A stretch of 64,000 nucleotides of DNA from Candidatus Poribacteria bacterium (GCA_965215015.1 OZ244042.1:5504001-5568000), one strand, 5' to 3'. Shown: positions 27,113 through 46,650, numbered from the stretch's first letter. Notes: generated by a model from the letters alone, not told the origin. Numbers and translations are program-made.

Positions 27113-27202
27113 GGTCAGCGTGTATTGTCAAAACTGATTTAACAGTATGCAAATTCGCACAAGTTGTTATCTTCATTTCGCGAATGAATAAGGAGATTTC
27201 TT

Positions 27203-27457
27203 ATGATTCGTCGACATTTTTTATTATTGGTAGGGATTCTGGTTTTTGCAATGCTGATACCAACAGTCGTGGAAGCCTGTCCCTCATGTAAAACGATTGA
27301 TGACCCGATTGTTCAGGGCTTCAAGTGGAGCATTCTATTCCTTATGGCGATGCCCTACATTGTTTCCGGTCTAATTGGCGGGGGCGTATTTTACGTATAT
27401 TACCACACACATCGGACCGATAATCGTAAACCACCTTCAAATGTGAAAGGAGTGTGA
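27203..27457 (+). CDS. Small membrane protein with CxxC (ACPSCK) in the cox operon
   Basis: AAGGAG RBS; signal/TM, ACPSCK, second TM (SILFLMAMPY). Confidence 0.75.
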   Translation: MIRRHFLLLVGILVFAMLIPTVVEACPSCKTIDDPIVQGFKWSILFLMAMPYIVSGLIGGGVFYVYYHTHRTDNRKPPSNVKGV

Positions 27458-27460
27458 AAA

Positions 27461-29163: not shown

Positions 29164-29270
29164 AATCTATTACAGTTTCCAGCCTGTCACACACCGGCTG
29201 TGCCTCTAGGCACCCCTTAATGCTGACTCGCAATGCGTTCCGACAGAAAGAAAGGATACAGGAAAGATTT

Positions 29271-30974
29271 ATGATTGAATACGATGTGCTCGTTATTGGC
29301 GGCGGTTTGGCGGGGATGAGTGCCGCCCTGCATGCGGGAGAGGCCGGGGCGAGCGTGGCAATGATGTCAAAGGTTTACCCAACGCGCTCCCACTCGGCAG
29401 CCGCGCAAGGCGGTATCAACGCAGCACTAGGTATTGAAGACTCGTGGGAAGTTCACGCTTATGAGACTGTCAAAGGCAGTGACTTCTTAGGCGACCAGGA
29501 TGCCATCGAAATCCTGTGCCATGAAGGCATTCAGGACGTCTTCTCTCTTGAACATTGGGGCGTCATCTTTGACCGCAATGAAGAGGGAAACATCCACATG
29601 CGCGGCTTCGGCGGAACGGACAAGAGCCGCACGTGCCATGTCGGCGATATGACTGGGCAGACCATTTTGCACGTCATGTACGAGCGACTGCTCAAGATGA
29701 ACGTCAAATCCTACGATGAATGGTTCGTGACAACACTGCTCATGGAGGAAGGCGCATGCTGTGGTGCCGTGGCGATGGAGATAACGAGCGGCAAATTGGA
29801 AGTCTTTAAGGCGAAAGCGGTCATTATCTGCACCGGTGGTTGTGGACGGGTCTACGAGCCAAGCACCAATGGGCTTATCGTGACGGGCGATGGGCTTTCT
29901 TTAGCCTATCGTGTTGGGGCCCTGCTCATGGACATGGAGATGGTACAATATCATCCGACGACACTCCCCGCCAACGGCTTTCTCATCACAGAAGGAGCGC
30001 GCGGCGAAGGCGCGTATCTGCTGAATTCCGAGGGCGAGCGGTTTATGCAGGAGGAACGCTATGGCGCAACAACATTGGAGGAAAAAGCCTCGCGCGATGT
30101 TGTCTCTCGCGCCGAAACAATCGAAATCCAGGAAGGGCGTGGGATTGATGGCTGTGTACTGCTTGATTGTCGCCACATCAAAGACCGTATTTTAGAGGCT
30201 TTCCATCAAATTTCCGAGCTCGCAATTGATTATGCTGGTGTGGATATTACGCAGCAGCCCCTACCGATTCGACCAGGGATGCATTATATGATGGGGGGCA
30301 TTAAGACGGATATAGACGGACGCTGCTATCGACATAACGGGGATGGTTCAGAACCGCTGCCCGGCTTGTACTCGGCAGGTGAGGCTGCCTGTGTTTCAGC
30401 ACATGGGGCGAATCGCCTCGGGGGCAACAGCCTACTGGACTGTGTTACATTTGGCCGGAGAGCGGGCGCACATGCGGTGGAATATGCTAGAAGCATTAAC
30501 TCTGCTAATATCTCCGAGGCAGTCATAGGAGTGGAGGAGCAGAAGATTGGAGACCTTTTTGCTCGCTCGACGAACGAGCGGGCCCCCGCCCTGCGACTGG
30601 AAATGGGCGAGATTATGCACACTTTCACTGGTGTGTTTCGCGAGGAGGCCGGTTTGATTGAGGCACAACGCAGAATCCACGCTGTCCGTGAACGTTATCC
30701 AGACGTCTCTGTTCACGATAAGGGTAGAGTATTCAATACCGATTTGCTAGCTGTCTTAGAGTTGGACTTCATGTTCGATTGTGCTGAAACGATTATCGCT
30801 AGTGCCCTTGCACGCAAGGAAAGCCGTGGTGCCCACACCCGCACCGACTATCCTGAACGGGACGACGAGAACTGGCTCAAGCATGTGGCTGTCTACCATA
30901 CCCCTGACGGACCCGCAGTTACCTATCTGCCGGTGACGATTACGAAATGGCAACCGGAGGCGCGGAAGTACTGA
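29271..30974 (+). CDS. sdhA: Succinate dehydrogenase/fumarate reductase flavoprotein
   Basis: GGGLAG, RSHSAAAQGG (covalent FAD His), QYHPT, TEGARGEG, HGANRLGGNSL, ESRGAH; ATG 29271 preferred over 29220. Confidence 0.95.
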   Translation: MIEYDVLVIGGGLAGMSAALHAGEAGASVAMMSKVYPTRSHSAAAQGGINAALGIEDSWEVHAYETVKGSDFLGDQDAIEILCHEGIQDVFSLEHWGVIFDRNEEGNIHMRGFGGTDKSRTCHVGDMTGQTILHVMYERLLKMNVKSYDEWFVTTLLMEEGACCGAVAMEITSGKLEVFKAKAVIICTGGCGRVYEPSTNGLIVTGDGLSLAYRVGALLMDMEMVQYHPTTLPANGFLITEGARGEGAYLLNSEGERFMQEERYGATTLEEKASRDVVSRAETIEIQEGRGIDGCVLLDCRHIKDRILEAFHQISELAIDYAGVDITQQPLPIRPGMHYMMGGIKTDIDGRCYRHNGDGSEPLPGLYSAGEAACVSAHGANRLGGNSLLDCVTFGRRAGAHAVEYARSINSANISEAVIGVEEQKIGDLFARSTNERAPALRLEMGEIMHTFTGVFREEAGLIEAQRRIHAVRERYPDVSVHDKGRVFNTDLLAVLELDFMFDCAETIIASALARKESRGAHTRTDYPERDDENWLKHVAVYHTPDGPAVTYLPVTITKWQPEARKY

Positions 30975-31304
30975 GATGTAATATGCAGAGACTAGGAAAC
31001 CAATGGCACTAGTTTGCAACTGTTGAGACCGAGAATGAAACGTGAAGGCCGGAAAACGGGATAGGGAGAAAACAGGAGGATCGAGAAAGCGTGGAATCGA
31101 GTTAGAACACTTACTCCCTTACTCCCTCACACACCCCCTCCCGCGTCTGCTCGTTTCCTTGTTGTCTCGTTATGGCGCAATAACCCAATGAACCAATCAA
31201 CTCTCGAGCTGTTGAACGATGTGGAAACGACGGCCTCACCGACTCGTACCAAAGGTTAGAAAATGGGAACTTAACGCATTACTCATCACGCATAGGAGAT
31301 AAGA

Positions 31305-32267
31305 ATGATACAAGCTAATTTGAAGGTGTACCGTTACGACCCGCAGACAGCTCAGGAACCGCATTATGACACCTATGAAGTAAAGGAGTTGCCTGATTTT
31401 GCAACCGTGCTGGATGCGCTTATCAAAGTCCGCGAAGATATCGACGGTACCCTCGCGATGCGCTGTTCATGTCGCAGCGCGGTTTGCGGCTCATGTGCCT
31501 TCCGGGTCAATGGACACGCGAAGTTAGGGTGCAAGACCAAGGTCTCAACGCTTGCCCCTGACGGTGAGGAGATTCGTGTTGAGCCGATGGGCAACATGAA
31601 GGTAATTAAAGACCTTGTGACTGAAATGGAGATGTTCTGGGATAAATTAAAGCAAGTGAAGCCGTGGATTGAGACGGAGGGAGAGCCCCCAGAACGTGAG
31701 TATCAAGTCCCGCACGCTAAGATGGTCGAACTGCAACAACCAATGAACTGCATCATGTGCGGCGCATGTGTGAGCGATTGCACGGTGCTAGAGGAGGATT
31801 CAAACTTCTTAGCTCCTGCGGCACTGGCGAAAGCGTACCGCGTGGTCGGGGATCCGCGCCACGACAAAACCAAAGAGTGGCTAACAGAGCTGAGTGAAGA
31901 GGGCGGTATCTGGGATTGCACAAGGTGTCTGGAATGTGTGGAGGTCTGCCCGAAGGATGTCGCGCCAATGGACCAAATTATCAAGTTGCGTGAACAAGCA
32001 ATTGAAGAAGGGTTGACCGACAACATAGGCGCGAAACATGTGCTTCACTTTACCGAAAGCGTAGCGCATACCGGCGTGCTCGATGAGCGTACACTACCGA
32101 TAAAAGCGGCAGGTTGGAGTTGGGCTGTTAAGAACGCAGGCATCGCAATCAAGGCAACCCTGAAAGGGAAAATCAAACCCCTGTTGCCCGGCTCACACCC
32201 TTCGGTGACCGAGGTCCGGGATGTCCGGCGCATTCATAAGCAGTTGGAAGAGGGAAAAAGGAAGTAG
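31305..32267 (+). CDS. sdhB: Succinate dehydrogenase iron-sulfur subunit with C-terminal extension
   Basis: CRSAVCGSC...C, CIMCGACVSDC, CTRCLECVEVCP. Confidence 0.95.
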   Translation: MIQANLKVYRYDPQTAQEPHYDTYEVKELPDFATVLDALIKVREDIDGTLAMRCSCRSAVCGSCAFRVNGHAKLGCKTKVSTLAPDGEEIRVEPMGNMKVIKDLVTEMEMFWDKLKQVKPWIETEGEPPEREYQVPHAKMVELQQPMNCIMCGACVSDCTVLEEDSNFLAPAALAKAYRVVGDPRHDKTKEWLTELSEEGGIWDCTRCLECVEVCPKDVAPMDQIIKLREQAIEEGLTDNIGAKHVLHFTESVAHTGVLDERTLPIKAAGWSWAVKNAGIAIKATLKGKIKPLLPGSHPSVTEVRDVRRIHKQLEEGKRK

Positions 32268-32572
32268 GGGGCTCGAGGAAGTTTACGATTCGGTTCACAC
32301 GATGAGAAAGTGATGCTCAAATTTTGCTGAGCATACCTTTTGAGAATTGGAAACCACCTATCCGATTTACTGCTTTTCAGCACATCTGAAATTGCTGTCC
32401 CATCAGACTGGAACGATTGCAGGTGCAAGCTTGGCGTCAGTTGGAAATCATTAAGACGAACGTATTGCTTAAGCTGTAAGGGGAAGCAAGGAAGAATTCG
32501 CTGTCTGTTTTACGCATCACATATCACATATTAGGTTTCACGTTCTAATCACAATTGATACGGGAGGATGTA

Positions 32573-33448
32573 ATGAGAATTGCCTACTTCCCTGGCTGTG
32601 TTGCCAAGGGAAATTGTCCAGAACTGAACCAATCCACTAAAAAGATTGCACCCTTACTCGGTATTGAGTTGGTCGAATTGACAGGTGCACCTTGCACCGG
32701 CGCGGGCGTGCTTCAAGCGCAGAATCCGGTGCTTGCCGATACATACAACGCCAAGACCCTTGCGCTCGCGGAGGAACTGGACCTGCCGCTGATGACAATC
32801 TGTTCGACCTGCATCGGCTGCCTACGTAAGAGCAATAAGAAACTGTCCGAGGACGAGGACTACCGGGCAGAGGTCAACGCAGTGCTCAAATCCGGTGGAC
32901 ACGAGTACCATGGTGGTGTAGATGTCACTCACATTCTCTATGTCGTTATCAAGGAACTCGGTCTGGACAATCTACGCGGCATGGTCAAAAAGCCGCTGAC
33001 TGACTTGCGGATCGCACCGTTTTACGGCTGCTACATCTTGCGTCCTGCCAGCATCATGGGGATTGATGACCCTGACAATCCGACTTCGCTGGAACGCGTG
33101 ATTGAGGCGTTGGGTGGCACCCCAGTAGACTACTACGGCAAAACACGCTGTTGCGGTTTCCCCATCGGGCTTGAGAACGAAGAAGCGTCATTCAAAATGG
33201 CTGGAAAGCATATTGGCGAGGCAAAGGACAAAGGAGCAGATTGCATGGTAACGCCTTGCCCACTCTGCCACATGAACCTTGACCTCCAGCAGCCCGGCGT
33301 TAGTCGAGTGGTCGGACGCCCCCTGGATATGCCGGTGCTTCACCTGCCGCAGATGATCGGTTTGGCACTTGGCTTGCCCCCAAAAGAGTTGGGCCTCGGC
33401 AAACATATAATATCAGCCCAAAACGTGCTAGCAAAGTTAGGGACATAA
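32573..33448 (+). CDS. CCG-domain (HdrB-like) SdhE-type subunit
   Basis: YFPGC, CSTC, FYGC, RCCG, TPCPLCHMNLD; follows sdhAB; GGAGG RBS before ATG 32573. Confidence 0.88.
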   Translation: MRIAYFPGCVAKGNCPELNQSTKKIAPLLGIELVELTGAPCTGAGVLQAQNPVLADTYNAKTLALAEELDLPLMTICSTCIGCLRKSNKKLSEDEDYRAEVNAVLKSGGHEYHGGVDVTHILYVVIKELGLDNLRGMVKKPLTDLRIAPFYGCYILRPASIMGIDDPDNPTSLERVIEALGGTPVDYYGKTRCCGFPIGLENEEASFKMAGKHIGEAKDKGADCMVTPCPLCHMNLDLQQPGVSRVVGRPLDMPVLHLPQMIGLALGLPPKELGLGKHIISAQNVLAKLGT

Positions 33449-33520
33449 GCGGGTATTGTAAGGGCCTTCGCAAGATTATCAAACCGATTTGCAGCGAAAT
33501 TGGGCTTGAAGGAGAGGTAA

Positions 33521-34909
<1,389 letters not shown>

Positions 34910-34917
34910 CATTGCTA

Positions 34918-35177
34918 GTAGTAGGCATACTCCGTATGCCGTAAAGCGGCAAGGGTTGCCCCTACAGGGAATAAACCCAACGCAGGGGCAGGTTTTGTGC
35001 CTAACCAACCCACGGTCGGTGGAACGGAAAATACGGCAACCGTGTCCAACAAGGCTGTCATTGTAGGTGCCTGATGGTATATCGTGTGGCAACGAATCAC
35101 CGAGCTACCCCTTGCCCCCCTTATCTGTCTCCCCTTGACAGGGGGTTGGCCTTGAGCGTTCAACTGCGGAAGTCCTA
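34918..35177. repeat. Mosaic of REP-like hairpins and a MITE right end
   Basis: 27-nt REP identical to 5391; inverted GTAGGGGCAACCC fragment; GTTCAACTGCGGAAGTCCTA matches the MITE end at 10346-10365. Confidence 0.65.
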
Positions 35178-35222
35178 AAAGACATAATTCATCAATGGAA
35201 AATTCACATCGGAGGCAAAAGG

Positions 35223-37139
35223 ATGTTTAAAAAAATCTATGTACCTGTTGATAACTCGGACCATTCCGATGCGAGCGTCAATTTCGCTGTGGAGTTCGCT
35301 AAAAAATTTCAGTCACAACTCGTTGGTTCTCACGTTTATGCAGCGAAGATGCACGATGTTCGTTTCAAGCAGATGGAGTACACACTTCCCGAAGAATATC
35401 AAGATGAAGCTGAACTGGAGAAGCAGCGCCGCATTCATGACACCTTGATTACAATGGGGCTTCAGTTAATCTCCGATTCATACTTGGAGGTCATGAAGAA
35501 GAAATGCGCTGAAAATGACATTCCCTTTGAAGCCAAAATGCCTGAGGGCAAACACTTTATCAAGTTGGTAGAGGACATTCAGGCGAGCGATTACGACCTT
35601 GTAATTATGGGTGCCCTCGGTATGGGGGCGGTTAAGGATAGCCTGCTCGGTGGCGTCGTTGAGCGGGTTGTACGACGCATTCAGGCCGATACCCTTGTGG
35701 TCCGGAATATAGAGGAAATGCACGGACAGAAGGGGCATATTCTCGTCGGAATTGATGGGAGCCCCGAATCCTTCGGTGGACTGAAGACGGCAATACGGAT
35801 CGGCAAGGAGTTTGATAGACAGGTGGAAGCGGTTGGTGTCTATGACCCGTATCTTCACTACGTGGTGTTCAATTCGGTTGTCAGTGTCCTAACCGAGCGA
35901 GCCTCTAAAACTTTCCGATTCAAAGAGCAGGAGCAGTTGCACGAGGAGGTTATCGACACCGGGCTTGCCAAAATCTATCAATCCCATCTGGAGATTGCCC
36001 GAACCATCGCCAAGGAAGACCACAACTACGACCTCAAAATCACCTTGTTGGATGGCAAAGCGTTTGAGAAAATCCTGCAATACGCTCGAAAGACCGAACC
36101 GTGGATGCTAGTGTTGGGCAGAATCGGCGTCCACAGTGATCCCGATATGGACATCGGCAGCAACACCGAAAACTTATTGCGCCTAGCCCCGTGTAATGTG
36201 TTCTTGTCAAGCCAGCGGTATGTTCCAAAAGTTGATGTCAGAGCAGAGGAGACGGTGGTTTGGACACAGGAAGCCTTAGATCGGATGACAAAAGCACCGC
36301 CGCAGGTGCAAGGCATCGCACGCACCGCTGTCCACCGTTTTGCCATTGAACGCGGGCACTCTGTAATTACCGAGAGTGTTATTGAGCAAGCAATGGAGAC
36401 CTTTATGCCGGGACGTTCAGCGGAGCGGATGACCAAAGTTGCGAAAGAGATTGCAACGCAAACAGTGCTGGATTCCAACGCAATCAAGACCTACATCTGT
36501 GGCGATTGTGGCTATGCCGCCCGCGACCAACAACCCGTGAAATGTCCGGTCTGCGGTGTGGCTGGCGACCGATTTCAGATGGTTGATAAAGATTCTCTCC
36601 AGAGGGTTGCAGATCAGGAGGGCGGTGCCAGCGAGGAACAGACCTTCGACGGTGTCCGTCTCCAATGGTCAGATCGGGCGAAAAAAGCGTTGCGGAATGT
36701 TCCAAGGGGGTATATGCGGCGCAACGTCAAAGCGCGAATCGAAAAGTCAGCGCGTGTCCAGAAGATTGGTACAATCACCAACGAGTTTGCGATGCAGATT
36801 ATCAATGAGAGCATGGATCAGGCTTCCGCTGTCCGTGAAGACGCCCCTGAACTGAGAGCTGTCGCGCGGTCCCGCGAGTCCGCTGAGACCTCCCAAGGGG
36901 AAACGTTTGAAAGTTCGCTTGAATGGACGCCAGATGCCCGTGAACGGTTGAACCTCGTGCCCGCTGGATTCATGCGAAACATTACACAATCCCGTGTCGA
37001 GCAACGAGCAAAGGAAGCCAACCTCACGACAATCAGCCTAGATTTCGCAGCGCAGGTGATTGAGGAAGGACGGAGTTTAGACAATGAGGTGCTTGGGACA
37101 TATTACCAGCAGGACGGAGAGGTAGATGAGGGAAAATGA
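35223..37139 (+). CDS. Fusion protein: 2x universal stress protein domain + PCP_red + rubredoxin-like + 2x PCP_red
   Basis: KIYVPVDNS, LVIMGALG, ILVGIDGS, IGSNTENLLR; CGDCG...CPVCG; three W(T/S)xxA...P helical motifs. Confidence 0.88.
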   Translation: MFKKIYVPVDNSDHSDASVNFAVEFAKKFQSQLVGSHVYAAKMHDVRFKQMEYTLPEEYQDEAELEKQRRIHDTLITMGLQLISDSYLEVMKKKCAENDIPFEAKMPEGKHFIKLVEDIQASDYDLVIMGALGMGAVKDSLLGGVVERVVRRIQADTLVVRNIEEMHGQKGHILVGIDGSPESFGGLKTAIRIGKEFDRQVEAVGVYDPYLHYVVFNSVVSVLTERASKTFRFKEQEQLHEEVIDTGLAKIYQSHLEIARTIAKEDHNYDLKITLLDGKAFEKILQYARKTEPWMLVLGRIGVHSDPDMDIGSNTENLLRLAPCNVFLSSQRYVPKVDVRAEETVVWTQEALDRMTKAPPQVQGIARTAVHRFAIERGHSVITESVIEQAMETFMPGRSAERMTKVAKEIATQTVLDSNAIKTYICGDCGYAARDQQPVKCPVCGVAGDRFQMVDKDSLQRVADQEGGASEEQTFDGVRLQWSDRAKKALRNVPRGYMRRNVKARIEKSARVQKIGTITNEFAMQIINESMDQASAVREDAPELRAVARSRESAETSQGETFESSLEWTPDARERLNLVPAGFMRNITQSRVEQRAKEANLTTISLDFAAQVIEEGRSLDNEVLGTYYQQDGEVDEGK

Positions 37140-37340
37140 TGTGCAGACTGAGGAATAGGGGTTAGGACGGAATCTGCCTACGATTATTAATTATATGTTG
37201 AGTGATGGAGTTGAAACGGGAGAAGAGTAACGGCACCTACAGTAGCCCGAACCAAGGAGGCTAAAGTTAAGTTTAAGTCTTTTATTGTGATTGATAAACT
37301 CAACCTGCTAGCTATATGATAAATCAGGAGGCGGGAAATA

Positions 37341-38147
37341 ATGCTTGAACTGAACACGCTTTACTGTGGAGATGCTTTCGAGTTACTCAAAAAAGTCAAG
37401 GATGAATCGGTCGATTTGATTGTATGTGATGGACCGTATGGCACAACACAGAATGAATGGGATAAGATATCTTCAATCCAAGAATTTAATCTTAAATTAA
37501 TCAAATGTTTCACACCTAAGTTGAAAGATGGAGGGGCTTTGTATCTGTTTGGCAAGCCTAACTGCATTGACTTTATAGATTACCGCCCATTTTTGAACCT
37601 ACGCTCAAAAATTGTCTGGTATCAACCGAGTCGCCTTGCCCAAGGACGAATCAAATACACCAACAACTATGACATAATATGCTATTTCATTAAGGGCAAA
37701 CGCCCACGATGTTATAATCTAGATGCAATCAGAGTAGCACAGCTTGTTGAGTTGGAGCATCGGCGCCGTTGTGAACGAGTGCCTTCCGTGTTAAATGGCA
37801 AATTTGGAAAGACAAAGTTTAACAAAGAGGGTAAAAATCCGGGAGATGTTTGGGGCGATATAAAACAGCTTACTTATAAATCAAAAGAGTTAGTTCATAG
37901 AAAAGCTCTCAATACTATTCAGAAACCTGAAAAGTTAATGGAAAGGATTGTTTTAGCCAGTTCATCTCCAGGAGATTTAGTCTTAGATCCTTTTGCAGGG
38001 GTCAGCACGTGCCCAGTTGTGTGCAAGAGAAACAGTCGCAATTTTATCGCTTTTGAGATTGAACCAACTTTTGTTCACGCAGGTACAAAGAGACTTCACG
38101 AGCTTGATAACGATCAACAGGGGGTTTTGTTTGCTGATGGCGAGTGA
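37341..38147 (+). CDS. Beta-class amino (N4-C/N6-A) DNA methyltransferase
   Basis: VDLIVCDGPY (DPPY variant), NPGDVW, QKPEKLMERIV, VLDPFAG. Confidence 0.92.
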   Translation: MLELNTLYCGDAFELLKKVKDESVDLIVCDGPYGTTQNEWDKISSIQEFNLKLIKCFTPKLKDGGALYLFGKPNCIDFIDYRPFLNLRSKIVWYQPSRLAQGRIKYTNNYDIICYFIKGKRPRCYNLDAIRVAQLVELEHRRRCERVPSVLNGKFGKTKFNKEGKNPGDVWGDIKQLTYKSKELVHRKALNTIQKPEKLMERIVLASSSPGDLVLDPFAGVSTCPVVCKRNSRNFIAFEIEPTFVHAGTKRLHELDNDQQGVLFADGE

Positions 38148-38637
38148 AATATATCGCAAAATCATTGAACTTGTGTTGAAGGCTGCAGAATTAGCAAGGA
38201 CTGTAGGAATTCATAATATTTTACAACCAGGACTCGTCAAGGAGATGATTATTGCTGAGATCCTTAGCCATGAACTGATCACCTCAAAGCAAGACGCGGA
38301 TGCCCGTTCTCCAGATAACCCTACAATTCTGTATGAATACCTATCATGCAAGGAAGGTGGTTCCGGCCAGTTTGATAGAATGTTTAAGCATCCGCCGGAA
38401 AAGCGCCAAGAATCTTTGAATAGAATTTGGAGAAACAATAAAGTCTACTTTGCTGTGTTCTATGCAGCCAATCAAACGAAAGTGAAAGTGATTTTTGAGC
38501 TTGAACCAGAAAGTGTTGTCACAGAAACGGAACGACAACTTGACCGTAGCCGAAATGAAATTTCTCACGTTGGGTTTCGAGAGCGATGGGCACGAGAAAA
38601 TGGGAAAATTGTTTACGAAGATACGGAGCAGCCTTAA
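38137..38637 (+). CDS. PvuII-like type II restriction endonuclease
   Basis: 166 aa overlapping the MTase stop; LARTVGIHNILQ, DA...YEYLS, YFAVF...IFELEP, ENGKIVY parallel PvuII LALKHGINDIFQ, DA...YELKS, IFAIY...IYRLEP, EHGTKIY (from memory). Confidence 0.65.
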   Translation: MASEIYRKIIELVLKAAELARTVGIHNILQPGLVKEMIIAEILSHELITSKQDADARSPDNPTILYEYLSCKEGGSGQFDRMFKHPPEKRQESLNRIWRNNKVYFAVFYAANQTKVKVIFELEPESVVTETERQLDRSRNEISHVGFRERWARENGKIVYEDTEQP

Positions 38638-38887
38638 ATGTGTTGGGAGAAGTCAATGCGAGGCATTGACATAACGAACACGGTAACCGTATAGAACTAA
38701 TAGCCGAAATTCCAGAGCAGTGCGTCAATCTGGTATAAGATAAAATACACAGCAACCGATCTTACGCTGAATTTTGCTTCTATCTGCTCATCACCTTGGT
38801 GTTTATCGGGTATAGTATCTCCAATTACCCTTTGTATTTAAACAGGTACTTAAGAAAAATGAATTATCCAGCGTATATCCAAGCCGG

Positions 38888-39769
38888 GTGTGTGTCAATT
38901 TAGATCGGAGTTTGTCAATGTCCCCCAGAAATCCTTTACATTTTGCAGAAATCCTTGTGTGTCTAGATGACTCAAGCTATTCTCAGGCAGCGGTCGAATA
39001 TGCCACGCAAATCGCTCTTGAACATAAAGCCTCACTAACAGGCATCGGAGTAATTGATCTGCCGGGTATCCAACGTGCAAGTGGGCCCGCGCCAATTGGA
39101 GCGATGCACTACGATCGACTTGCTGACCAGCAACACTTTCAAGAGACGCGGGAGGTAGTCAATGGGGTCCTTAAAGACTTTGGGAACACCTGTCAGGAGA
39201 AAGGGATCCACCACTCCATCCATTCAGAGATGGGCAGCCCATTTCGGGAAATTATTGAAGAATCAAGATTCCACGATTTTATTATAATTGGGCAGAAGAC
39301 CTTTTTTCGGTACAACGTCAAACGTGAACCGGGTAACACCTTGGATCGAATTCTTCATAACGGGTTGACTGCGGTCCTTGCAGTCCCCGATTCTGTCAGA
39401 CCGATTAAAAAAGTGCTCGTCGCTTATGATAACAGCGTCCAAGTTACCAAAGCAATTCATATGTTTCTCCTGCTTCACATCTGGAATCAGTGCCATATCA
39501 CCCTCCTGAATGTGAACAATAATGCAAGTCGTGGCATACAGTTGCTCGGTAGGCTCAGCGATTACTTCAATAGATATGGGGTGCAGCCAGAAAAGGTCCA
39601 ATTGAGAGGCAAGGTAGATGAAGCGATTCTGTCCTACATCCGAGAACATGAAATCGATCTGCTCGTCATGGGAGCGTATGGGAAACGAAGCGTGTCGGAG
39701 TTCGTCTTCGGCAGTGTAACCAAATCCTTGGTGGCGCAGGCGGGCATTCCGTTGTTTATCTATCATTAA
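38888..39769 (+). CDS. Tandem universal stress protein
   Basis: ILVCLDDS, VLVAYDNS, DLLVMGAYG...FGSVT; start probably ATG 38918. Confidence 0.92.
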   Translation: MCVNLDRSLSMSPRNPLHFAEILVCLDDSSYSQAAVEYATQIALEHKASLTGIGVIDLPGIQRASGPAPIGAMHYDRLADQQHFQETREVVNGVLKDFGNTCQEKGIHHSIHSEMGSPFREIIEESRFHDFIIIGQKTFFRYNVKREPGNTLDRILHNGLTAVLAVPDSVRPIKKVLVAYDNSVQVTKAIHMFLLLHIWNQCHITLLNVNNNASRGIQLLGRLSDYFNRYGVQPEKVQLRGKVDEAILSYIREHEIDLLVMGAYGKRSVSEFVFGSVTKSLVAQAGIPLFIYH

Positions 39770-39778
39770 TCAAAACTT

Positions 39779-40672
39779 ATGAAAACTTACAAAGACCTCC
39801 CCGCCGATGGCGGTTCTAACATCGTTGGACAAGTGACCCAGCAAGTCAATCGCTTACAAAAACGACTTGCGTCTGTCCGCCACACTCTTGCCATCATGAG
39901 CGGAAAGGGTGGGGTGGGTAAAAGTGCGATTACGGCAAACCTCGCTTCGGCTCTTGGATTGCGCGGACACAATGTTGGCGTAGTTGACGCTGACATCAAT
40001 GGCCCCTCAATTGCCAAAATGATGGGGGTGAGAGGATGCCAAATTGATTATGGTGCCGATGGCGTTAAGCCTGCCCTCAGTCCACTTGGGGTCAAGGTAA
40101 TGTCGATGGATTTGTTCCTCAAGGATGACGAAACCCCTGTTCTGTGGGAAGCCCAAACGCAGAAGGATGCCTTTACCTGGCGGGGGACGATGGAGATGAC
40201 CGCCCTCCGCGAATTCCTCTCTGATACTGAATGGGGAACGCTTGATTATTTGCTGGTCGATCTCCCGCCCGGCACAGACCGTTTGCCGAACCTCGTCGGC
40301 CTCCTGCCGGATCTTGGCGGCACGGTTGTTGTCACAATCCCTTCTGGGGTTTCGCAGCTTATCGTCAAAAAATCGTTGACGATGGCAAAGAAATTACTCA
40401 ACGCACCGGTAATCGGCATCGTCGAAAATATGGCAGCTTACGTCTGCGCCGATTGTGGCAAAACTGAAGATCTGTTCCCATCGGGGCACACGGAGGAGAT
40501 GGCGCGTCAATTTGACATTTCTCTACTCGGCAAAATCCCTTTCGATCCGCGAATTTCTATCGCTGCGGATGAGGGTAGTGCGTTTGTTGATCGATACCGA
40601 GATACTCCCACAGGACAAGCATTTTTCGGCATCACAGATGAAATTCGGATGTTCTTTGAACGGAAAATGTAA
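39779..40672 (+). CDS. Mrp/NBP35 (ApbC) ATPase, Fe-S carrier family
   Basis: MSGKGGVGKS, DADINGPS, WRG, DLPPGT, ENMAAYVCADC. Confidence 0.93.
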   Translation: MKTYKDLPADGGSNIVGQVTQQVNRLQKRLASVRHTLAIMSGKGGVGKSAITANLASALGLRGHNVGVVDADINGPSIAKMMGVRGCQIDYGADGVKPALSPLGVKVMSMDLFLKDDETPVLWEAQTQKDAFTWRGTMEMTALREFLSDTEWGTLDYLLVDLPPGTDRLPNLVGLLPDLGGTVVVTIPSGVSQLIVKKSLTMAKKLLNAPVIGIVENMAAYVCADCGKTEDLFPSGHTEEMARQFDISLLGKIPFDPRISIAADEGSAFVDRYRDTPTGQAFFGITDEIRMFFERKM

Positions 40673-40692
40673 CATATAAACGGAGTGAATCA

Positions 40693-41193
40693 ATGAAATT
40701 CTTATGCCTTGAATGTAACACAGCGATGGAGTTTAGGGAAACAGCGACGCCGGATCAAGGCTCGTTGACGGCTATCTTCGAGTGCCCAGATTGTTTTGCT
40801 GAATTCGCAATGCACATGAACCCGTGGGAAACTCAGATGCTAAAATCCCTTGATGTGCAACTCGGTGGTAAAAGCGAAGCGGCGCAGCCGATGCGGATGG
40901 TACGTTCCTTCTTAACTCAAAAGAACCCAGACAATCTGATCTCCGAAGCACCGCCGGTATCCGCCGAAGGCGGCGGGAAATGCCCGTTCACATTGGTTGT
41001 AGCGGAAGCATTTCAAGAGCCGGAGGCGACCGGGCCGGTATGGACACCAGAAGCGTTAGCGCGTTTGGAGCGCGTGCCTAGTTTCGTCCGTTCGATGGCG
41101 CAGAACAGCATCGAAGAATTCGCCCGTGAGAATGGACACACCGAAATCACTACCGAGGTGATGGAGGCCGCACGGGGTAATTTTGGGATGTAG
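40693..41193 (+). CDS. CxxC...CxxC metal-binding protein with C-terminal PCP_red domain
   Basis: CLEC, CPDC, NPWETQM, GKCPF, WTPEALARLERVPSFVRSMA...ITTEVM. Confidence 0.85.
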   Translation: MKFLCLECNTAMEFRETATPDQGSLTAIFECPDCFAEFAMHMNPWETQMLKSLDVQLGGKSEAAQPMRMVRSFLTQKNPDNLISEAPPVSAEGGGKCPFTLVVAEAFQEPEATGPVWTPEALARLERVPSFVRSMAQNSIEEFARENGHTEITTEVMEAARGNFGM

Positions 41194-41205
41194 GGGTCCA
41201 TTACA

Positions 41206-42657
41206 GTGAAAACGGAAGATATTCATCGCACACAAACATCAATAGATTTATCATCGTACCCTATTTCACTATCAGCTATATCGACGAAGATTGCCAAAAA
41301 AAATGGGGGGCGGAAGCGACCTAAACGTGAGGCACATCAACCCGACCTATTCGTCCATCAATTGATGGACAATGTTCGGAAAATTGTGAATCCGTTTGGG
41401 GAGGAGGTTGTGCGGATTGATGGGGATATTCCTGTGGAATTACCTGTTAATGATGGCGATCAATTTCTGTTTATTAGCTACGATCAGACTCATCTCACTC
41501 ACGGATTGCACAAGTATCCTGCTAAATTTTTTCCCGAATTACCGCGTTGGTTAATCAAACGGTATTCTCAAGAAAACGATATGATACTCGATCCGTTTTC
41601 GGGGAGCGGGACGACAAATGTTGAGGCACTCTTACTGAACCGAAACTCTGTCGGTATTGATGTCGATCCATTTTCTCGCTTTATCTCAACTGTCAAGGTA
41701 ACACCCTTAGCTGAAAAGGAACTCATCGAAGCTCAAGAATCTCTGTTTAATGCCGTAGAAGGCTACCAACCCACTCTGGTATCAGAATTGGATATACCGT
41801 CCTTCCCTTACAGGGATAATTGGTTCAACAGAGAAATAATTTTAGAATTGGCTTACTTAAAAAAGATTATTGAGTCCCTTGATAAGAGTAAGCATGTTAA
41901 AGACTTCTTCAGAGTCTGTTTCTCCTCGATTATCCGTTCAGTATCCAACGCCGATGATAATTGCACGAGAACTGTAATTCGGAAGGTGCTGAACAAACAG
42001 GTCAATCCCTCCGATGCCCTGAAGAAATTTGTGGAAACGGTGCTAGTCAAAGTTCCCAAAATGATAGAATTTTCTCAAAACGTACCACAAGATATAACCG
42101 TAAATTTTCCAGAAAACATGGACGCACGGAATATTAAGTACGATGCGGGGACTTTTGACTTGGTTCTTACTTCGCCGCCGTATGTGAATGCAGTCGATTA
42201 TCCGAGAACCCATCAATTAGAGCTCTATTGGTTAGGGTTTGCCGATGGACCTTTAACGCCCTTAAAGAAAAAGCATGTCGGTACTGAAAGTGTTTCATCA
42301 CAGGATTATCGGACCTGCCATCAGATTGATGTGGCAGCGGCGGATAGTGTCATCGAGAAGATTTTTGAAAAGGACCCAAGACGCGCGTATATCGCTTTCA
42401 AATACTTAGACGATATGCAGAGAAATCTGTCTGAAGTTTATTCGGTATTACGCGATGGAGGACGATACATTATTGTCGTAGGCAATAACCGAATCCGTGG
42501 TCAGCTATTTGAAAGCTGGAAGTATCTGATGACCCTGGCAGAAAATATCGGATTTGATATTGAAAGCTATTTTGGATCAGAGATTATCAAACATTTCATT
42601 AAAGTACCCAGAGAGGAACAAATCAACACAGACTGGATTCTGGTACTCAGAAAATGA
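41206..42657 (+). CDS. Alpha-class N4-cytosine-type DNA methyltransferase, no nuclease adjacent
   Basis: HKYPAKFFPELP, LDPFSGSGTT, VLTSPPY; start uncertain. Confidence 0.9.
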   Translation: MKTEDIHRTQTSIDLSSYPISLSAISTKIAKKNGGRKRPKREAHQPDLFVHQLMDNVRKIVNPFGEEVVRIDGDIPVELPVNDGDQFLFISYDQTHLTHGLHKYPAKFFPELPRWLIKRYSQENDMILDPFSGSGTTNVEALLLNRNSVGIDVDPFSRFISTVKVTPLAEKELIEAQESLFNAVEGYQPTLVSELDIPSFPYRDNWFNREIILELAYLKKIIESLDKSKHVKDFFRVCFSSIIRSVSNADDNCTRTVIRKVLNKQVNPSDALKKFVETVLVKVPKMIEFSQNVPQDITVNFPENMDARNIKYDAGTFDLVLTSPPYVNAVDYPRTHQLELYWLGFADGPLTPLKKKHVGTESVSSQDYRTCHQIDVAAADSVIEKIFEKDPRRAYIAFKYLDDMQRNLSEVYSVLRDGGRYIIVVGNNRIRGQLFESWKYLMTLAENIGFDIESYFGSEIIKHFIKVPREEQINTDWILVLRK

Positions 42658-42702
42658 AGCAGAGGCATGTAGATTTCCTTACGTTTTACGTTCTACCTAT
42701 TC

Positions 42703-43194
42703 ATGCGCCCAGTTGTTGAACTTTTCATCCGTTGGATACACCTCATCGCTGCAATCGTTTGGGTTGGCGGAATCTTTTTTTCTGTTAGCGTTGCGACACC
42801 GATTCTGAGGCAGCATTTTCATCTCCTTGAAAGTGTCCAACACGCTTCTGTTATTCGGAATCGCCTGCGGCATATTATCCGTTTCACAATCCACATTCTC
42901 CTGATCACCGGTGCGATGAACCTGTTCATCGTCGGACTGAACACACAGATGCACTTTTCGCGAGGCTATGTCGTTGCGTTTATCGTAAAACTTGCCTGTG
43001 TCGGGCTGATGACTCTATTCCATAGCCTTCATATCGCCGTGTTCAATCGGAGGTTGGAATCCGCGGTGGCAAGCCCGAATTTTGACGATTTAGAGGTTTC
43101 TAAGTTGCAAAGAAGAGTAGACCTATTCGGAATTTTTACGATACTTGCTGGCCTTGTTGTGTTTGTGTTAGCTTTGAGTTTGAGGGTCGCTTGA
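42703..43194 (+). CDS. CopD/DUF4149-like four-TM membrane protein
   Basis: RWIHLIAAIVWVGG, LLITG, KL...H pattern. Confidence 0.75.
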   Translation: MRPVVELFIRWIHLIAAIVWVGGIFFSVSVATPILRQHFHLLESVQHASVIRNRLRHIIRFTIHILLITGAMNLFIVGLNTQMHFSRGYVVAFIVKLACVGLMTLFHSLHIAVFNRRLESAVASPNFDDLEVSKLQRRVDLFGIFTILAGLVVFVLALSLRVA

Positions 43195-43229
43195 TAAACG
43201 GAGAAAAGCATTATTAGGAAAGTAGACAG

Positions 43230-44531
43230 ATGGAAACGAAAGTCCAAGCCGTCTCATGGAATATCACACGGCTATGCAATCTCAAATGTATACACTGCTA
43301 TCTCCCCGCTGGATTTGTGGATACCAACGAATTTCCGAGCGGGTATTATCGCGATTCGGAGTTGACCCAATCCCAGTGTTTCCGCGTGATTGATGAGATT
43401 GCTGAAATCAATCCCAACATCCTTTTGATTCTCACAGGTGGCGAACCGTTGCTGCGTCCTGACATTTTGAAAATCTCAGATTACGCAGCTCGAACCGGGT
43501 TCTTAGTGGTGATGGGCACAAACGGCGTCCTGCTGAACGATGAAACGGTCCAGAGGATGAGCGATCACGGTGTTGCTGGTGCAGGCATCAGTTTGGATGC
43601 TGTGGATCCAGTCAATCACGACCAGTTTCGAGGAATGGAAGGGGCTTGGGAAGGCACGATGAACGGTGTCGAAGCTCTCAGGCGGGCAAACCTTGATTTC
43701 CTCGTCCAGACCTCTGTGACGCGTTGGAATTACGATGAGATTCCACAAATCGTTGATTTTGCCTATGAGCTCGGTGCGAAGGTGTTCAACCTCTATTTTC
43801 TCGTAAGAACCGGTAGAGGGAAAACAGTGATGGACATCACCCCTGCTCAATATGAGCGTATGCTCTCGACACTTTTTGAGTTGCAGGCGAAATATCGTGG
43901 CAAAATGCTCGTCGCAGCGAAGTGTGCACCACACTACAAGCGGGTCATCTATGAACAACAATCGGATTCGCCCTTTCTACAAGCCTATCCGAGCGGTACG
44001 TGTCCCTGTGGTATCTATTATTGCCGCATCACGCCTGAAGGTGATTTAACACCTTGCCCGTATATGCAGGTGAGCGTCGGCAATCTGAAGACAGAAAGTT
44101 TTGCGACCCTCTGGAATCAATCTAAAGTTTTTCAAGAGCTACGAGATCGGAAATTGTTGGAGGGTAAGTGTGGCACCTGCGAATTTCGAGACGTTTGCGG
44201 TGGTTGTCGCGCCCGCGCCTACGCGCTCACCGATAACTATCTCGCCGAAGATCCGTCCTGCGAATACCAACCGGGGCAGGCCGGAGGTCAAAACGTTCGG
44301 TTCGAGCAAACGACTCCCTTTGCGGCTGAAACTGACTACGAGCTACAATGGACAGATGCTGCACAACAAAGATTGCAGCGTGTTCCCTCCTTCGCACGAG
44401 GGATGGTCACTAAAAGCGTCGAAAAATACGCCCGTGAACACGGTTACAGTGAAATTACGCCGGAAATCATGAAAGCGGTCAAGAATCGGTTTGATAAAAC
44501 GGGAATCCCGTCTTTCACGCCTCGGCGGTAA
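43230..44531 (+). CDS. Radical SAM/SPASM enzyme of NirJ/AhbC-D type with C-terminal PCP_red domain
   Basis: WNITRLCNLKCIHC, TGGEPLLRPD, KCAPHY, CPCG...GDLTPCPY, CGTCEFRDVCGGCRARA, EDPSC; WTDAAQQRLQRVPSFARGM. Confidence 0.92.
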   Translation: METKVQAVSWNITRLCNLKCIHCYLPAGFVDTNEFPSGYYRDSELTQSQCFRVIDEIAEINPNILLILTGGEPLLRPDILKISDYAARTGFLVVMGTNGVLLNDETVQRMSDHGVAGAGISLDAVDPVNHDQFRGMEGAWEGTMNGVEALRRANLDFLVQTSVTRWNYDEIPQIVDFAYELGAKVFNLYFLVRTGRGKTVMDITPAQYERMLSTLFELQAKYRGKMLVAAKCAPHYKRVIYEQQSDSPFLQAYPSGTCPCGIYYCRITPEGDLTPCPYMQVSVGNLKTESFATLWNQSKVFQELRDRKLLEGKCGTCEFRDVCGGCRARAYALTDNYLAEDPSCEYQPGQAGGQNVRFEQTTPFAAETDYELQWTDAAQQRLQRVPSFARGMVTKSVEKYAREHGYSEITPEIMKAVKNRFDKTGIPSFTPRR

Positions 44532-44648
44532 AATATGGCTGATATATTTTCAGTACTTTTGCGTAAATCCTTATCTGTTCAGGGGTTCAAGAGTTGATCC
44601 ACGTTACACATCACGCATAATATCCGCACATTTGAGGAGAAAAAAATA

Positions 44649-45062
44649 ATGAACAGTGAAAACAAAGTAGAAGAACGATTATCCGCGGTTGAGGACCGGT
44701 TGAATCGTTTGGAAGATTTACTAATCGGTATTAGTCAGAAATTAGATCAGAAACCCCAACCGACCGCAGTTGACGAGGAAAAAGGGGAAGCACTCAAAGG
44801 TTGGGTGACTGATTACGTTTCAATGCGCTTGCAGCAGCTTGTGCCGGAAACGTGCGAACATCCCCATGCAGCTAAGGCGCAAGAAGGTCCATTCTTGGGT
44901 AACACCTCAATCCGTTGCACGGAGGAAGTCGTCCACCGCGTCAAACGCATCCCCATCCCATTTGTTCGGGAAATGGTTGTTCAGCGGGTCGCTGACAACG
45001 CCCAGCGTGCGAATGTGGAGGTAGTCGAGATTGACTTTTTTGAGAAAGCAGCAACTTTTTGA
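44649..45062 (+). CDS. Small coiled-coil protein with C-terminal PCP_red-like domain
   Basis: GAGGAG RBS; N-terminal heptad repeat; CTEEVVHRVKRIPIPFVREMV. Confidence 0.75.
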   Translation: MNSENKVEERLSAVEDRLNRLEDLLIGISQKLDQKPQPTAVDEEKGEALKGWVTDYVSMRLQQLVPETCEHPHAAKAQEGPFLGNTSIRCTEEVVHRVKRIPIPFVREMVVQRVADNAQRANVEVVEIDFFEKAATF

Positions 45063-45149
45063 CAATGCAAAGCAACGGAGGAGTTTCCTCTGCCACACTT
45101 CCACTGGGAGGATTTTTTAACATCTCCTCTCTGAGATGATTCCAATCCC

Positions 45150-45644
45150 ATGCCAACATACCCACTCCATAAAAATCAACAGAAAGCCTATCAAGTCTTG
45201 GCTACTCGCATTGATTCTAGGTCTGAGCACGGGACAATTTGCCTTGTCGGAGATTTTCAGTCCGGCAAAACGAACTTAGTCAAACATCTACTCAACGAGA
45301 AATTTGGCAACTCCACAGATTATTACGTAAACTTGAATCTGTATCTGCTTGATGAATTAAACAAACAGCGTGCATCAATCGCTTATGCTGGCGCAAAAGC
45401 AAAAATACACCTCCTGATACAAATCGCTATTGAAGACTTGCTAGAAAGACATTTCCAAACGCGCAATCTTCTCGTCCTTGATGCAATTGAAATAATATAT
45501 TCCTACGAGCTCAATCTTGTTGCGATTGCCGATCGCTTCACCCACAATGGTAAGTGCTGCATCATCTGCGTCCCTCAAAGCAAAAAGCAAAATTACTACT
45601 TTGACTTTAGCTGGGAACTTGCAGAGGCAATCCGAATTGACTGA
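45150..45644 (+). CDS. Small P-loop protein resembling BREX-3 BrxF, isolated
   Basis: LVGDFQSGKT Walker A, YVNLNL, LLVLDAIEII Walker B, 164 aa. Confidence 0.55.
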   Translation: MPTYPLHKNQQKAYQVLATRIDSRSEHGTICLVGDFQSGKTNLVKHLLNEKFGNSTDYYVNLNLYLLDELNKQRASIAYAGAKAKIHLLIQIAIEDLLERHFQTRNLLVLDAIEIIYSYELNLVAIADRFTHNGKCCIICVPQSKKQNYYFDFSWELAEAIRID

Positions 45645-45955
45645 AAATGGAATTGAGAGTGTTTGTGCGGCTGCCGTCAAGGCCCGATAGAGTCCCTTCT
45701 ATCTAATCTCCCGAGTCTCTTTACCTATTTGCACATTTCTTTCTGACTTTGGTGTTGACTGAAATTGCGGCATGTGATATAGTTGTTTAGTGATGTTATA
45801 ATTGATAACCTTCCTTGATATTGAGGGGGCTTGGCAGCGCGAATACAATCCAAGTAAGCTCCAAAGATTGGAGATAAACTGCAAATGATTGTATGCTCGC
45901 GAGTGCTAACACCAAGCTCACACAACCTACCTATACCACCAGATTGGAAAGATTC

Positions 45956-46468
45956 ATGAGTAAGCGAGCTGAAATCGCTAACGACCGAGCCATTAAATAT
46001 TGGGAACAGAATCGCTTTGACGAGGCTATTGCTCAATGGGAACAAATCGTTCGTAAAGATCCGAATCTTGCGGAGATACACTATAACCTTGGAAATGCTT
46101 ACATGTACCAAGACAACATTGAAAGGGCAATCGAAGCATTTAAGCGGGCACTGTCTATCGATCCTGCCCTGCCTGAAGCGTACAACAAGTTGGGGATCAT
46201 CTGTTACAAGCAAGGTAATGTAGAACTAGCGTGCGCCTGTTGGAAGCAGGCATTAAAGATTAATCCGGACTTTGAAGAAGTGCACCACAATATGGGATTA
46301 ATCCAAAATACCCCTCAGTTTGACGTGGATGACGAAATACCTGCACACCAGCATGCAACAGAGGATGATGCAAAAGATGATAAAAACGCAAGTATTGAGG
46401 ATGACAACGAGCTACCCACATGGAGAAACCGAATTCGCCAAGGTTGGGGAGCGTTCCGAAGAAAATAA
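45956..46468 (+). CDS. Tetratricopeptide repeat protein
   Basis: HYNLGNAY...A...FKRAL..DP and AYNKLG...A...WKQAL..NP repeats; ORF track start 45893 also possible. Confidence 0.88.
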   Translation: MSKRAEIANDRAIKYWEQNRFDEAIAQWEQIVRKDPNLAEIHYNLGNAYMYQDNIERAIEAFKRALSIDPALPEAYNKLGIICYKQGNVELACACWKQALKINPDFEEVHHNMGLIQNTPQFDVDDEIPAHQHATEDDAKDDKNASIEDDNELPTWRNRIRQGWGAFRRK

Positions 46469-46650
46469 AGCCGTTTCCATGATAGGGAAATGATTAAAAC
46501 AAGATCTACCGATCTGGATCGATTTTCTGAATGAGGCGGCGTAATTTTTTATCTAGTTCTGTTATCTGAAACTGTACAGGCAAGCTTCTAAATCTCGTTG
46601 ATGAAATCATGAGTCAATTGTTGGTATATAAAAATAAAACCCTTCATTGA

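Follow-up and report, generated by a model that had tools for sequence, protein, structure and literature searches.

The stretch of DNA analysed here, 64,000 nucleotides from a Candidatus Poribacteria bacterium (GCA_965215015.1 OZ244042.1:5504001-5568000) and called the window below, carries at positions 35223 to 45062 a run of + strand genes, several of which encode a small domain, PCP_red (Pfam PF08369), shared with the BchB/ChlB subunit of dark-operative protochlorophyllide reductase (DPOR). The run opens with a gene coding for a 638-amino acid fusion of two universal stress protein (USP) domains, a rubredoxin and three copies of PCP_red (35223-37139). Downstream lie genes coding for a second tandem USP of 293 amino acids, which is a lineage-specific accessory (38888-39769), an Mrp/NBP35-type P-loop ATPase paralog whose CxxC motif is C223/C226 (39779-40672), a 166-amino acid zinc-ribbon or rubredoxin-like protein with four cysteines arranged as CxxC...CxxC and a C-terminal PCP_red (40693-41193), a 163-amino acid membrane protein of the CopD/HemJ superfamily (42703-43194), an AhbD/NirJ2-like radical S-adenosylmethionine (SAM)/SPASM enzyme with a C-terminal PCP_red, taken here as the anchor of the module (43230-44531), and a 137-amino acid coiled-coil protein with a divergent PCP_red (44649-45062). 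Annotation was made with Pfam, complemented by NCBIfam for the radical SAM enzyme, by hhalign for the coiled-coil protein and by family-wide matches for the membrane protein. From the second USP gene through the radical SAM gene the intergenic gaps measure 10-46 nucleotides, and the closest named homologs are those of Candidatus Poribacteria. An earlier interpretation drawn from the window alone (the sequence-only reading) had proposed these open reading frames (ORFs), which were found where it had placed them. Its Mrp/NBP35 ATPase and its second USP were likewise borne out, with 253.6 bits for PF10609 (cut-off 27.1) and 96.2 bits for tandem Usp, respectively.

PCP_red occurs in every BchB/ChlB, and structural genomics has provided two structures of it, but no role has been assigned to it in DPOR. 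Six copies had been claimed for the run. A hidden Markov model (HMM) search with PF08369, whose gathering score is 32.5 bits, was run on the four proteins concerned: three were above that score, namely the USP fusion (94.5 bits over three stretches), the CxxC protein (69.1 bits) and the radical SAM protein (61.2 bits), and the coiled-coil protein was below it (17.4 bits, E 0.0048). Five copies are thus recognised by Pfam, and a six-frame genome scan located them at 36261-36392, 36666-36788 and 36924-37046 in the fusion, at 41041-41175 in the CxxC protein and at 44349-44483 in the radical SAM enzyme. The sixth, at 44922-45050 in the coiled-coil protein, has its conserved Trp replaced by Cys. 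Though under Pfam's own threshold, it appears to be a true divergent homolog: its family aligned with 223 PCP_red domains of other proteins with an hhalign probability of 97.1% (E 7.3e-11), and 14 of 15 homologs of the sixth-copy protein were matched by an HMM made from the remaining five copies of the window. A six-frame PF08369 search of the whole genome (5,943,281 bases) returned these six matches only; therefore the clustering is not due to chance and the genome lacks BchB/ChlB.

The model of DPOR subunit B (TIGR01278, cut-off 490 bits) matches the run's proteins over its last ~55 positions only, with 46-49 bits. A BchB remnant left over from photosynthesis was ruled out, as no nitrogenase-like domains and no further PCP_red match were found in the genome. 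Matches in the PDB (E 7.9e-7 to 3.5e-3) comprise BchB/ChlB structures (2xdq, 3aek, 2ynm, 8vqh) and two stand-alone nuclear magnetic resonance structures (2l09, 2kru). Among the matches listed in a profile search, 118 of 120 longer PCP_red proteins also carry Usp. DPOR acts on a tetrapyrrole and partners an iron-sulphur (Fe-S) P-loop ATPase of the broad class to which Mrp belongs. The C-terminal domain of BchB/ChlB is of the same sequence family as the window copies; the differences are that the nitrogenase-like BchN, BchB and BchL are absent from this genome, and that PCP_red is here multiplied and carried by non-homologous proteins. Papers on PCP_red other than those concerned with DPOR did not come up in our literature search, and a 2025 cryo-electron microscopy paper on DPOR passes over the domain in the part of its text consulted (PMC12022308).

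The radical SAM protein scores 81.9 bits with Radical_SAM and 40.1 bits with SPASM. Its best NCBIfam models are AhbD (TIGR04545, 326.8 bits) and NirJ2 (305.5 bits), each with a cut-off of 500 that is not reached. In the enzyme alignment, the radical SAM motif CX3CX2C (C16, C20, C23) is invariant, as are nine other cysteines. A search of the PDB by sequence returned no AhbD or NirJ structure, the nearest solved relative being PqqE (E 3e-21). In a FastTree phylogeny of 84 rows, all 68 PCP_red-bearing enzymes fall on one side of a branch with a support of 99, and a quick IQ-TREE analysis of 76 rows recovered the PCP_red-bearing clade again (Shimodaira-Hasegawa-like approximate likelihood ratio test, 99). 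Since all PCP_red-bearing rows form one clade, the fusion of the radical SAM enzyme with PCP_red may have had a single origin, and the enzyme, while AhbD-like, belongs to a subfamily distinct from the tail-less AhbD-like proteins. A second radical SAM-PCP_red copy with two in-frame stops (one TGA, one TAG) was noticed in an Acidobacteriota genome (G234:C1:208808-210061); as an intact copy is present on a different contig of that genome, this one is probably a pseudogene.

AhbD removes the carboxyls of two coproheme propionates without oxygen, using SAM and several [4Fe-4S] clusters, according to the part of a 2026 review that we used (PMC13564367). The window enzyme resembles AhbD in its CX3CX2C motif, its SPASM auxiliary-cluster cysteines and its best HMM match, and is 38-45% identical to PCP_red-less AhbD-like proteins. 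It differs in falling well short of the AhbD cut-off, in its PCP_red tail and in its own clade; moreover, enzymes of its type coexist with a true AhbD in Brocadia and follow a bd-like oxidase gene, described below, and not the genes of the siroheme-dependent alternative heme biosynthesis (AHB) pathway, in which AhbD is the heme b synthase.

The genetic background of heme synthesis varies among carriers of the enzyme. The genome of the window has a ferrochelatase and a partial Chlor_dismutase (ChdC-family) match, its other AhbD-like match is weak (53 bits), and neither AhbA/B (PF17805) nor a siroheme decarboxylase of the NirD/L/G/H type was found in it. AhbA/B was found in one of five other genomes with the radical SAM-PCP_red enzyme. 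The Brocadia genome holds AhbA/B and a separate AhbD (498 bits) alongside its radical SAM-PCP_red paralog, the Rhodothermales genome holds HemF (401.8 bits), with ChdC and AhbA/B not found there, and ChdC is present in the Gemmatimonadota, Acidobacteriota and Nitrospina genomes. Because it is found against three different heme-pathway backgrounds, the enzyme is, as judged from gene content, not a housekeeping heme synthase.

To assess conservation of the run, an alignment of radical SAM-PCP_red homologs was used to scan genomes, one for each species, and 80 loci were obtained. Sixty-seven of them bear PCP_red; in the other 13 the AhbD-like gene, archaeal or deltaproteobacterial, lacks the tail. 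Taxa are named here as in the records; most of the genomes are metagenome bins, in which a missing gene may reflect an assembly gap. Represented among the 67 loci are Poribacteria, Acidobacteriota, Gemmatimonadota, Rhodothermales, Binatia, Anaerolineales, Methylomirabilota and others. The USP fusion is found no more than 10 kb from the enzyme gene in 40 of the loci, Mrp in 40 and the CxxC-PCP_red protein in 38; when only the 37 loci with 8 kb or more on either side are counted, the numbers are 27, 28 and 27. The Mrp gene lies immediately 5' of the CxxC-PCP_red gene in 31 of 38 loci, frequently with a 4-nucleotide overlap, and the pair is also adjacent in a Nitrospina genome, distant from the enzyme gene. 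The core accessory set, as gene neighbourhood indicates, consists of the radical SAM-PCP_red enzyme, the USP/rubredoxin protein with its three PCP_red domains, the Mrp paralog and, directly behind it, the CxxC-PCP_red protein. The sequence-only reading had treated the run as one set. Conservation upholds this for PCP_red proteins together with Mrp, and not for the second USP, the CopD-like protein and the coiled-coil protein, which are nearly restricted to Poribacteria and do not belong to the core. Full-length homologs of the second USP were seen only in two Poribacteria loci (L001, L005). The CopD-like protein occurs in 16 of the 67 loci, all from Poribacteria except one from Rhodothermales (L052), and the coiled-coil PCP_red protein also in 16, namely 15 Poribacteria or Poribacteria-like loci and an unclassified one (L032, E 7e-10).

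About 19 kb upstream of this accessory half, the window carries a module of a bd-like gene followed by three cytochrome c genes, the last with an EB_dh domain (10498-16449, + strand, Pfam). The bd-like membrane protein (10498-12324, + strand) matches Cyt_bd_oxida_I with 65.7 bits over model positions 3-238 of 418, and its alignment with PDB 5doq is limited to residues 6-147, that is, helices 1-4 of CydA. The same restriction of CydA likeness to the first four helices characterises the OR-N family in the part of the preprint of Murali, Gennis and Hemp that we drew on (bioRxiv 10.1101/2021.01.16.426971), and the protein fits the OR-N type on this criterion of alignment. The main text of that preprint, its supplements being outside this statement, contains neither 'radical SAM' nor 'universal stress', in which the system described here differs.

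The bd-like gene was found within 10 kb of the enzyme gene in 22 of the 67 loci, and the three cytochrome c genes in 21, 23 and 23. These homologs are close to the enzyme or USP-fusion gene in Acidobacteriota, Gemmatimonadota, Rhodothermales/Bacteroidota, Binatia, two bins labelled 'Deltaproteobacteria' and one Anammoxibacter, with gaps of 0-40 nucleotides between genes of the two sets in several loci. A CarboxypepD_reg-like protein (16612-17400, + strand, Pfam) travels with the bd-like module; its family is kept in 21 loci under eight taxon labels. Clustering of ORFs revealed COX1, COX2, COX3, COX4, CtaB and this CarboxypepD_reg-like protein as recurrent extra neighbours, and GNAT proteins, small ferredoxins and an ABC-2 transporter as neighbours in some lineages. 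The layout of the whole window is thus that of a conserved supercluster. OR-N bd-like proteins have been proposed as the terminal oxidases of nitrite-oxidising Nitrospira and Nitrospina, and are also present in anammox bacteria and many uncultured phyla.

Phylogenetic profiling of the enzyme against the bd-like module revealed an association at the level of whole genomes. Among 403 sampled genomes of three phyla, 39 hold both genes, 2 the enzyme only, 3 the bd-like gene only and 359 neither. In Rhodothermales (101 genomes) the enzyme is present in 24 and the bd-like gene in 23, with 22 genomes holding both, 2 the enzyme only, 1 the bd-like gene only and 76 neither; all three single-gene cases are on short contigs. 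In Acidobacteriota (151 genomes) both genes are found in 8, one of which is an unpublished genome (G154), and neither in 143, with no single-gene case. Nine AhbD-like genes ending before the tail were also found in Acidobacteriota, and none of the nine genomes has a bd-like ortholog. In Planctomycetota (151 genomes) the enzyme is present in 9, one copy being truncated, and the bd-like gene in 11; 9 genomes hold both, none the enzyme only, 2 the bd-like gene only and 140 neither. In three closed Planctomycetota contigs the two genes are 0.5-1.3 Mb apart, which shows that the association survives the loss of linkage. Ten of ten further carriers, including Nitrospina, Nitrospiraceae, Brocadia, Methylomirabilota and Anaerolineales, also have a bd-like ortholog. 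The proposal of the sequence-only reading that the gene set is tied to the upstream oxidase and cytochromes therefore holds, through synteny in 22 of 67 loci and through genome-wide co-occurrence.

A PF08369 scan of five carrier genomes returned 4-6 matches per genome. In the Rhodothermales, Gemmatimonadota and Vicinamibacterales genomes all of them lie within ~6 kb, on the single contig of the module. In Nitrospina, PCP_red (42.4 bits) is fused to the N-terminus of ChdC (Chlor_dismutase 194 bits; L082:9081-10046, + strand), on the contig that also carries the radical SAM-PCP_red gene, ~22 kb away. The Brocadia genome encodes a 295-amino acid protein with PCP_red at its head followed by NIR_SIR and two Fer4 motifs (L083:7985-8872, - strand), directly upstream of AhbA and AhbB (7521-7988 and 6965-7435, - strand); the last gene of its bd-like operon codes for a USP-PCP_red protein, the radical SAM enzyme not being nearby. 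With BchB/ChlB included, PCP_red is thus part of no fewer than four unrelated proteins that belong to tetrapyrrole metabolism, and its link with tetrapyrroles gains support from the ChdC fusion and from the NIR_SIR fusion beside AhbAB. The same Nitrospina genome also encodes a 278-amino acid protein apparently made of three PCP_red domains and linkers only (L085:5986-6822, - strand), which resembles the extra C-terminal tail of the 629-amino acid radical SAM enzymes of Brocadiales.

The USP fusion contains two Usp domains (PF00582, 123.5 bits, cut-off 24) with nucleotide-binding glycine motifs that are invariant in both, and a rubrerythrin-type rubredoxin (PF21349) whose 26.3 bits are just below the cut-off of 26.5. 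Its four-cysteine knuckle lies at ~36492-36575, and the four cysteines are kept in 18 of 22 aligned rows. The closest solved relatives are the tandem USP Rv2623/TB31.7 (2jax, E 3.1e-5) and the rubredoxin domain of a rubrerythrin (3mps, E ~5e-5), from which the fusion differs in that both matches are weak. To our knowledge, no known USP carries a rubredoxin and three PCP_red domains. Both USP domains (35223-36230, residues 1-335) also contain inserted helical segments with invariant residues H37, H44, D45, H72, D73, H212, E235, H240 and D245; these His, Asp and Glu residues could be ligands of a metal adjacent to the rubrerythrin-like rubredoxin.

Residues C223 and C226 of Mrp are nearly invariant among 27 sequences, and the protein scores 258.1 bits with the MrpORP model NF041136, below its cut-off of 450. 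A second Mrp paralog (37% identity) is encoded elsewhere in the genome, and the copy in the run is therefore taken to be a dedicated one. Because the Mrp and CxxC-PCP_red genes are nearly always adjacent, a complex of an Mrp dimer with the CxxC-PCP_red protein was predicted. This is the one pairing for which the multimer check of PCP_red proposed by the sequence-only reading was run, and it gave weak support: the median score was 0.54 (0.45, 0.55, 0.54), against 0.01 for the best of three controls, with at least 54% of contacts shared between runs and a partner pLDDT (predicted local distance difference test) of at least 61. In calibration, 58 of 80 solved complexes and 2 of 110 mismatched pairs attained the mark, and scores of at most 0.60 included only 7 of the 80 solved complexes and both mismatches. 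The prediction raises a little the likelihood that the two proteins form a physical pair. Apparent Mrp-CxxC fusions in two loci (L033, L054) were rejected as artefacts of ORF calling or frameshifts, the overlapping frames each holding part of Mrp. Two Mrp genes were noticed in the Nitrospina genome (L086), where a 364-amino acid homolog with an extra N-terminal segment (965-2059, + strand) lies ~1.3 kb from a short paralog (3315-4196, - strand); the CxxC-PCP_red gene comes after the short paralog, and the 364-amino acid copy looks like a housekeeping one.

The CopD-like assignment made by the sequence-only reading stands as a placement in the superfamily, while the scores with both CopD (PF05425, 28.3 bits, cut-off 32.1) and UPF0093/HemJ (PF03653, 25.6 bits, cut-off 34.2) remain below the cut-offs. 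Within its family, 11 of 12 members match CopD and 8 of 12 match HemJ with E <= 0.01, which is evidence for superfamily placement only. His13, in the first transmembrane helix, is invariant. HemJ is described as a membrane b-type hemoprotein in the consulted part of the review (PMC13564367).

The explanation that we favour, with confidence that is evenly balanced, is that the run is a dedicated module for the maturation or assembly of a heme cofactor destined for the OR-N-type bd-like complex, PCP_red being its shared adaptor. The best explanation of the layout, for which belief and doubt are about equal, is that 35223-45062 is the accessory half and 10498-16449 the structural half of one conserved two-part system. 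The radical SAM enzyme would perform oxygen-independent chemistry on the propionates of an iron tetrapyrrole (coproheme, heme b or a derivative), and its product would be a heme cofactor made or supplied for the bd-like complex. The Mrp paralog and the CxxC-PCP_red protein would load or repair the [4Fe-4S] clusters of the enzyme or feed it electrons. The USP-rubredoxin protein may be a nucleotide-gated electron carrier or a scaffold, probably linked to low oxygen. PCP_red would be a helical adaptor of ~45 residues that gathers these proteins at a common partner or tetrapyrrole, and may play the same part in BchB, in ChdC and in the NIR_SIR protein beside AhbAB. The genes of heme d1 synthesis (nirDLGHJ and others) beside nirS are a known case of a tetrapyrrole-tailoring operon adjoining its client enzyme. 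The likeness to that operon is in a NirJ/AhbD-type radical SAM protein encoded with the respiratory enzyme that would use its product; the differences are the lack of the NirD/L/G/H type from the window genome and the nature of the accessories, which are here the USP-rubredoxin, Mrp and CxxC proteins.

The conserved accessory set supplies concrete genes for the study of OR-N bd-like complexes and gives PCP_red a first functional context, and the presence of a heme-type radical SAM enzyme in the set predicts that the bd-like complex requires a specially made or delivered heme. Our literature search, the supplements of the OR-N preprint being outside it, found no paper linking a radical SAM enzyme to bd-like oxidases. 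We found no description in print of a cofactor-maturation system of this kind, which points to one that is apparently undescribed. In a bolder version, which we regard as improbable, PCP_red would be a general adaptor recruiting Fe-S P-loop ATPases of the NifH/Mrp class (BchL in DPOR, Mrp here), and the module an ATP-gated heme-tailoring machine for low oxygen that provides the OR-N bd-like active site with a so far unknown modified heme. If true, this would account for the unexplained tail of BchB, and the modified heme would serve the OR-N 'oxidases' of nitrite oxidisers, anammox bacteria, Poribacteria and others.

Several observations weigh against a module dedicated to the bd-like complex. 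Shared ancestry, and in many lineages the physical linkage of the genes as well, inflates the co-occurrence counts, so that the cases are not independent of one another. Two Planctomycetota genomes and one Rhodothermales genome carry a bd-like ortholog and lack the enzyme. The enzyme gene stands alone within 10 kb in all seven Nitrospinaceae loci, in the single Nitrospiraceae locus and in three of four Brocadiales loci. An aa3-type oxidase with CtaA, CtaB and SCO1 lies in the same supercluster, and the client could be this oxidase or both. Finally, a weak pass of the complex prediction is, according to the calibration, more often wrong than right unless the pairing was likely beforehand.

The strongest rival, which we think unlikely, sees in the enzyme an ordinary coproheme decarboxylase (AhbD) that works without oxygen and was acquired by bacteria otherwise using ChdC. 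The cluster would provide ordinary heme b at low oxygen, and its link with the bd-like gene would reflect a shared low-oxygen regulon and not a special cofactor. AhbD and NirJ2 are indeed the top NCBIfam matches of the enzyme, and the window genome has a ferrochelatase and a ChdC-like gene without AhbA/B. The consulted part of the review places AhbD in prokaryotes that use the coproporphyrin pathway and lack other AHB enzymes (PMC13564367). Moreover, the ChdC of Nitrospina bears PCP_red, so that the tag is common to both types of coproheme decarboxylase, and USP proteins increase at low oxygen in Nitrospira marina, as reported in the portion of a preprint that was available (bioRxiv 10.1101/2020.07.02.185504). 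However, in Brocadia the paralog would be redundant next to the separate AhbD and AhbA/B, and in the Rhodothermales genome, with HemF and with ChdC and AhbAB not found, a coproheme intermediate is not expected. The gene is also limited to 24 of 101 Rhodothermales genomes, 22 of which have the bd-like gene, and the enzyme is far below the AhbD cut-off and in a clade of its own.

A distinctly less probable rival is that the module is mainly one of sensing and regulation, in which the ATP-binding USP domains and the redox-active rubredoxin report on energy or oxygen and regulate how the respiratory complexes work or are assembled, with PCP_red providing protein contacts and the radical SAM enzyme being a passenger. 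The invariant glycine motifs of both USP domains, the tandem USP TB31.7 as nearest solved relative and the Brocadia bd-like operon, which ends with a USP-PCP_red gene in the absence of a nearby enzyme gene, agree with this; against it, no member is kept more widely than the radical SAM-PCP_red gene, which is found together with the bd-like gene even where a USP fusion is missing from the surrounding 10 kb (Nitrospinaceae), the dedicated Mrp and the Fe-S-rich enzyme point to catalysis and not to signalling, and no DNA-binding or kinase domain is among the Pfam matches of the run. Very improbable, and the least likely of these rivals, is that the client is the neighbouring aa3-type heme-copper oxidase, through assembly of its heme A or copper centre, and not the bd-like complex: COX1, COX2, COX3, COX4 and CtaB families recur in the loci (COX3 in 24 and COX1 in 17, for example), the USP fusion of Methylomirabilota loci and of two Poribacteria loci (L008, L012) has COX-family or CtaB genes immediately upstream, and the window holds CtaA, CtaB, SCO1 and a CopD-superfamily protein, but the Brocadia bd-like operon ends with USP-PCP_red and has no COX-family gene recognised in its ORF list, on which no family scan was run, and in Rhodothermales the module, present in 24 of 101 genomes, tracks the bd-like gene.

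The remaining genes of the supercluster lie between the two halves. Upstream of the run are ABC-2 transporter genes and an aa3-type oxidase with CtaA, CtaB, two COX3 genes and SCO1. The bd-like/cytochrome c module, the ABC-2 transporter and the aa3 oxidase with CtaA, CtaB and SCO1 recur jointly across phyla (10498-28087 in the window; L027, L034 and L043-L063), and the bd-like/cytochrome c unit could feed the aa3 oxidase instead of reducing oxygen itself. Genes of the succinate dehydrogenase/fumarate reductase type (flavoprotein, Fe-S and CCG-domain subunits) and a fumarase gene (29220-34909) sit between the aa3 genes and the USP fusion in the window; in the two Poribacteria loci L008 and L012 it is instead COX3 and COX4 genes that lie directly upstream of the fusion. 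In one Binatia bin (L059) the whole cluster is found twice, mirrored about position 11,500, which is probably an assembly artefact (inverted duplication).

A promoter scan of 34800-46600 returned 10 sites against a chance expectation of 15.5, and a terminator scan 9 against 11.3, results which are uninformative on operon structure. A search for sequencing runs that contain the region listed four, all of one study and none of them recorded as RNA. Within the run, Pfam recognises two DNA methylases of the N6_N4 class (37341-38147 and 41206-42657, + strand) that lie outside the module, the first accompanied by an ORF without a family (37993-38637, + strand); the sequence-only reading had passed over these three genes. 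The segment 37112-38893, with the first methylase and the extra ORF, is missing in the closest relative locus (L001, 88% nucleotide identity); the second methylase is present in that locus and missing at the same position in most others. Both methylase segments are insertions and no part of the system. Together with a D12/Dam-class gene (18905-19831), three DNA methyltransferase genes interrupt otherwise tight respiratory and accessory operons, and this Dam-type methylase splits the transporter genes, separating the ABC ATPase gene from its ABC-2 permease gene.

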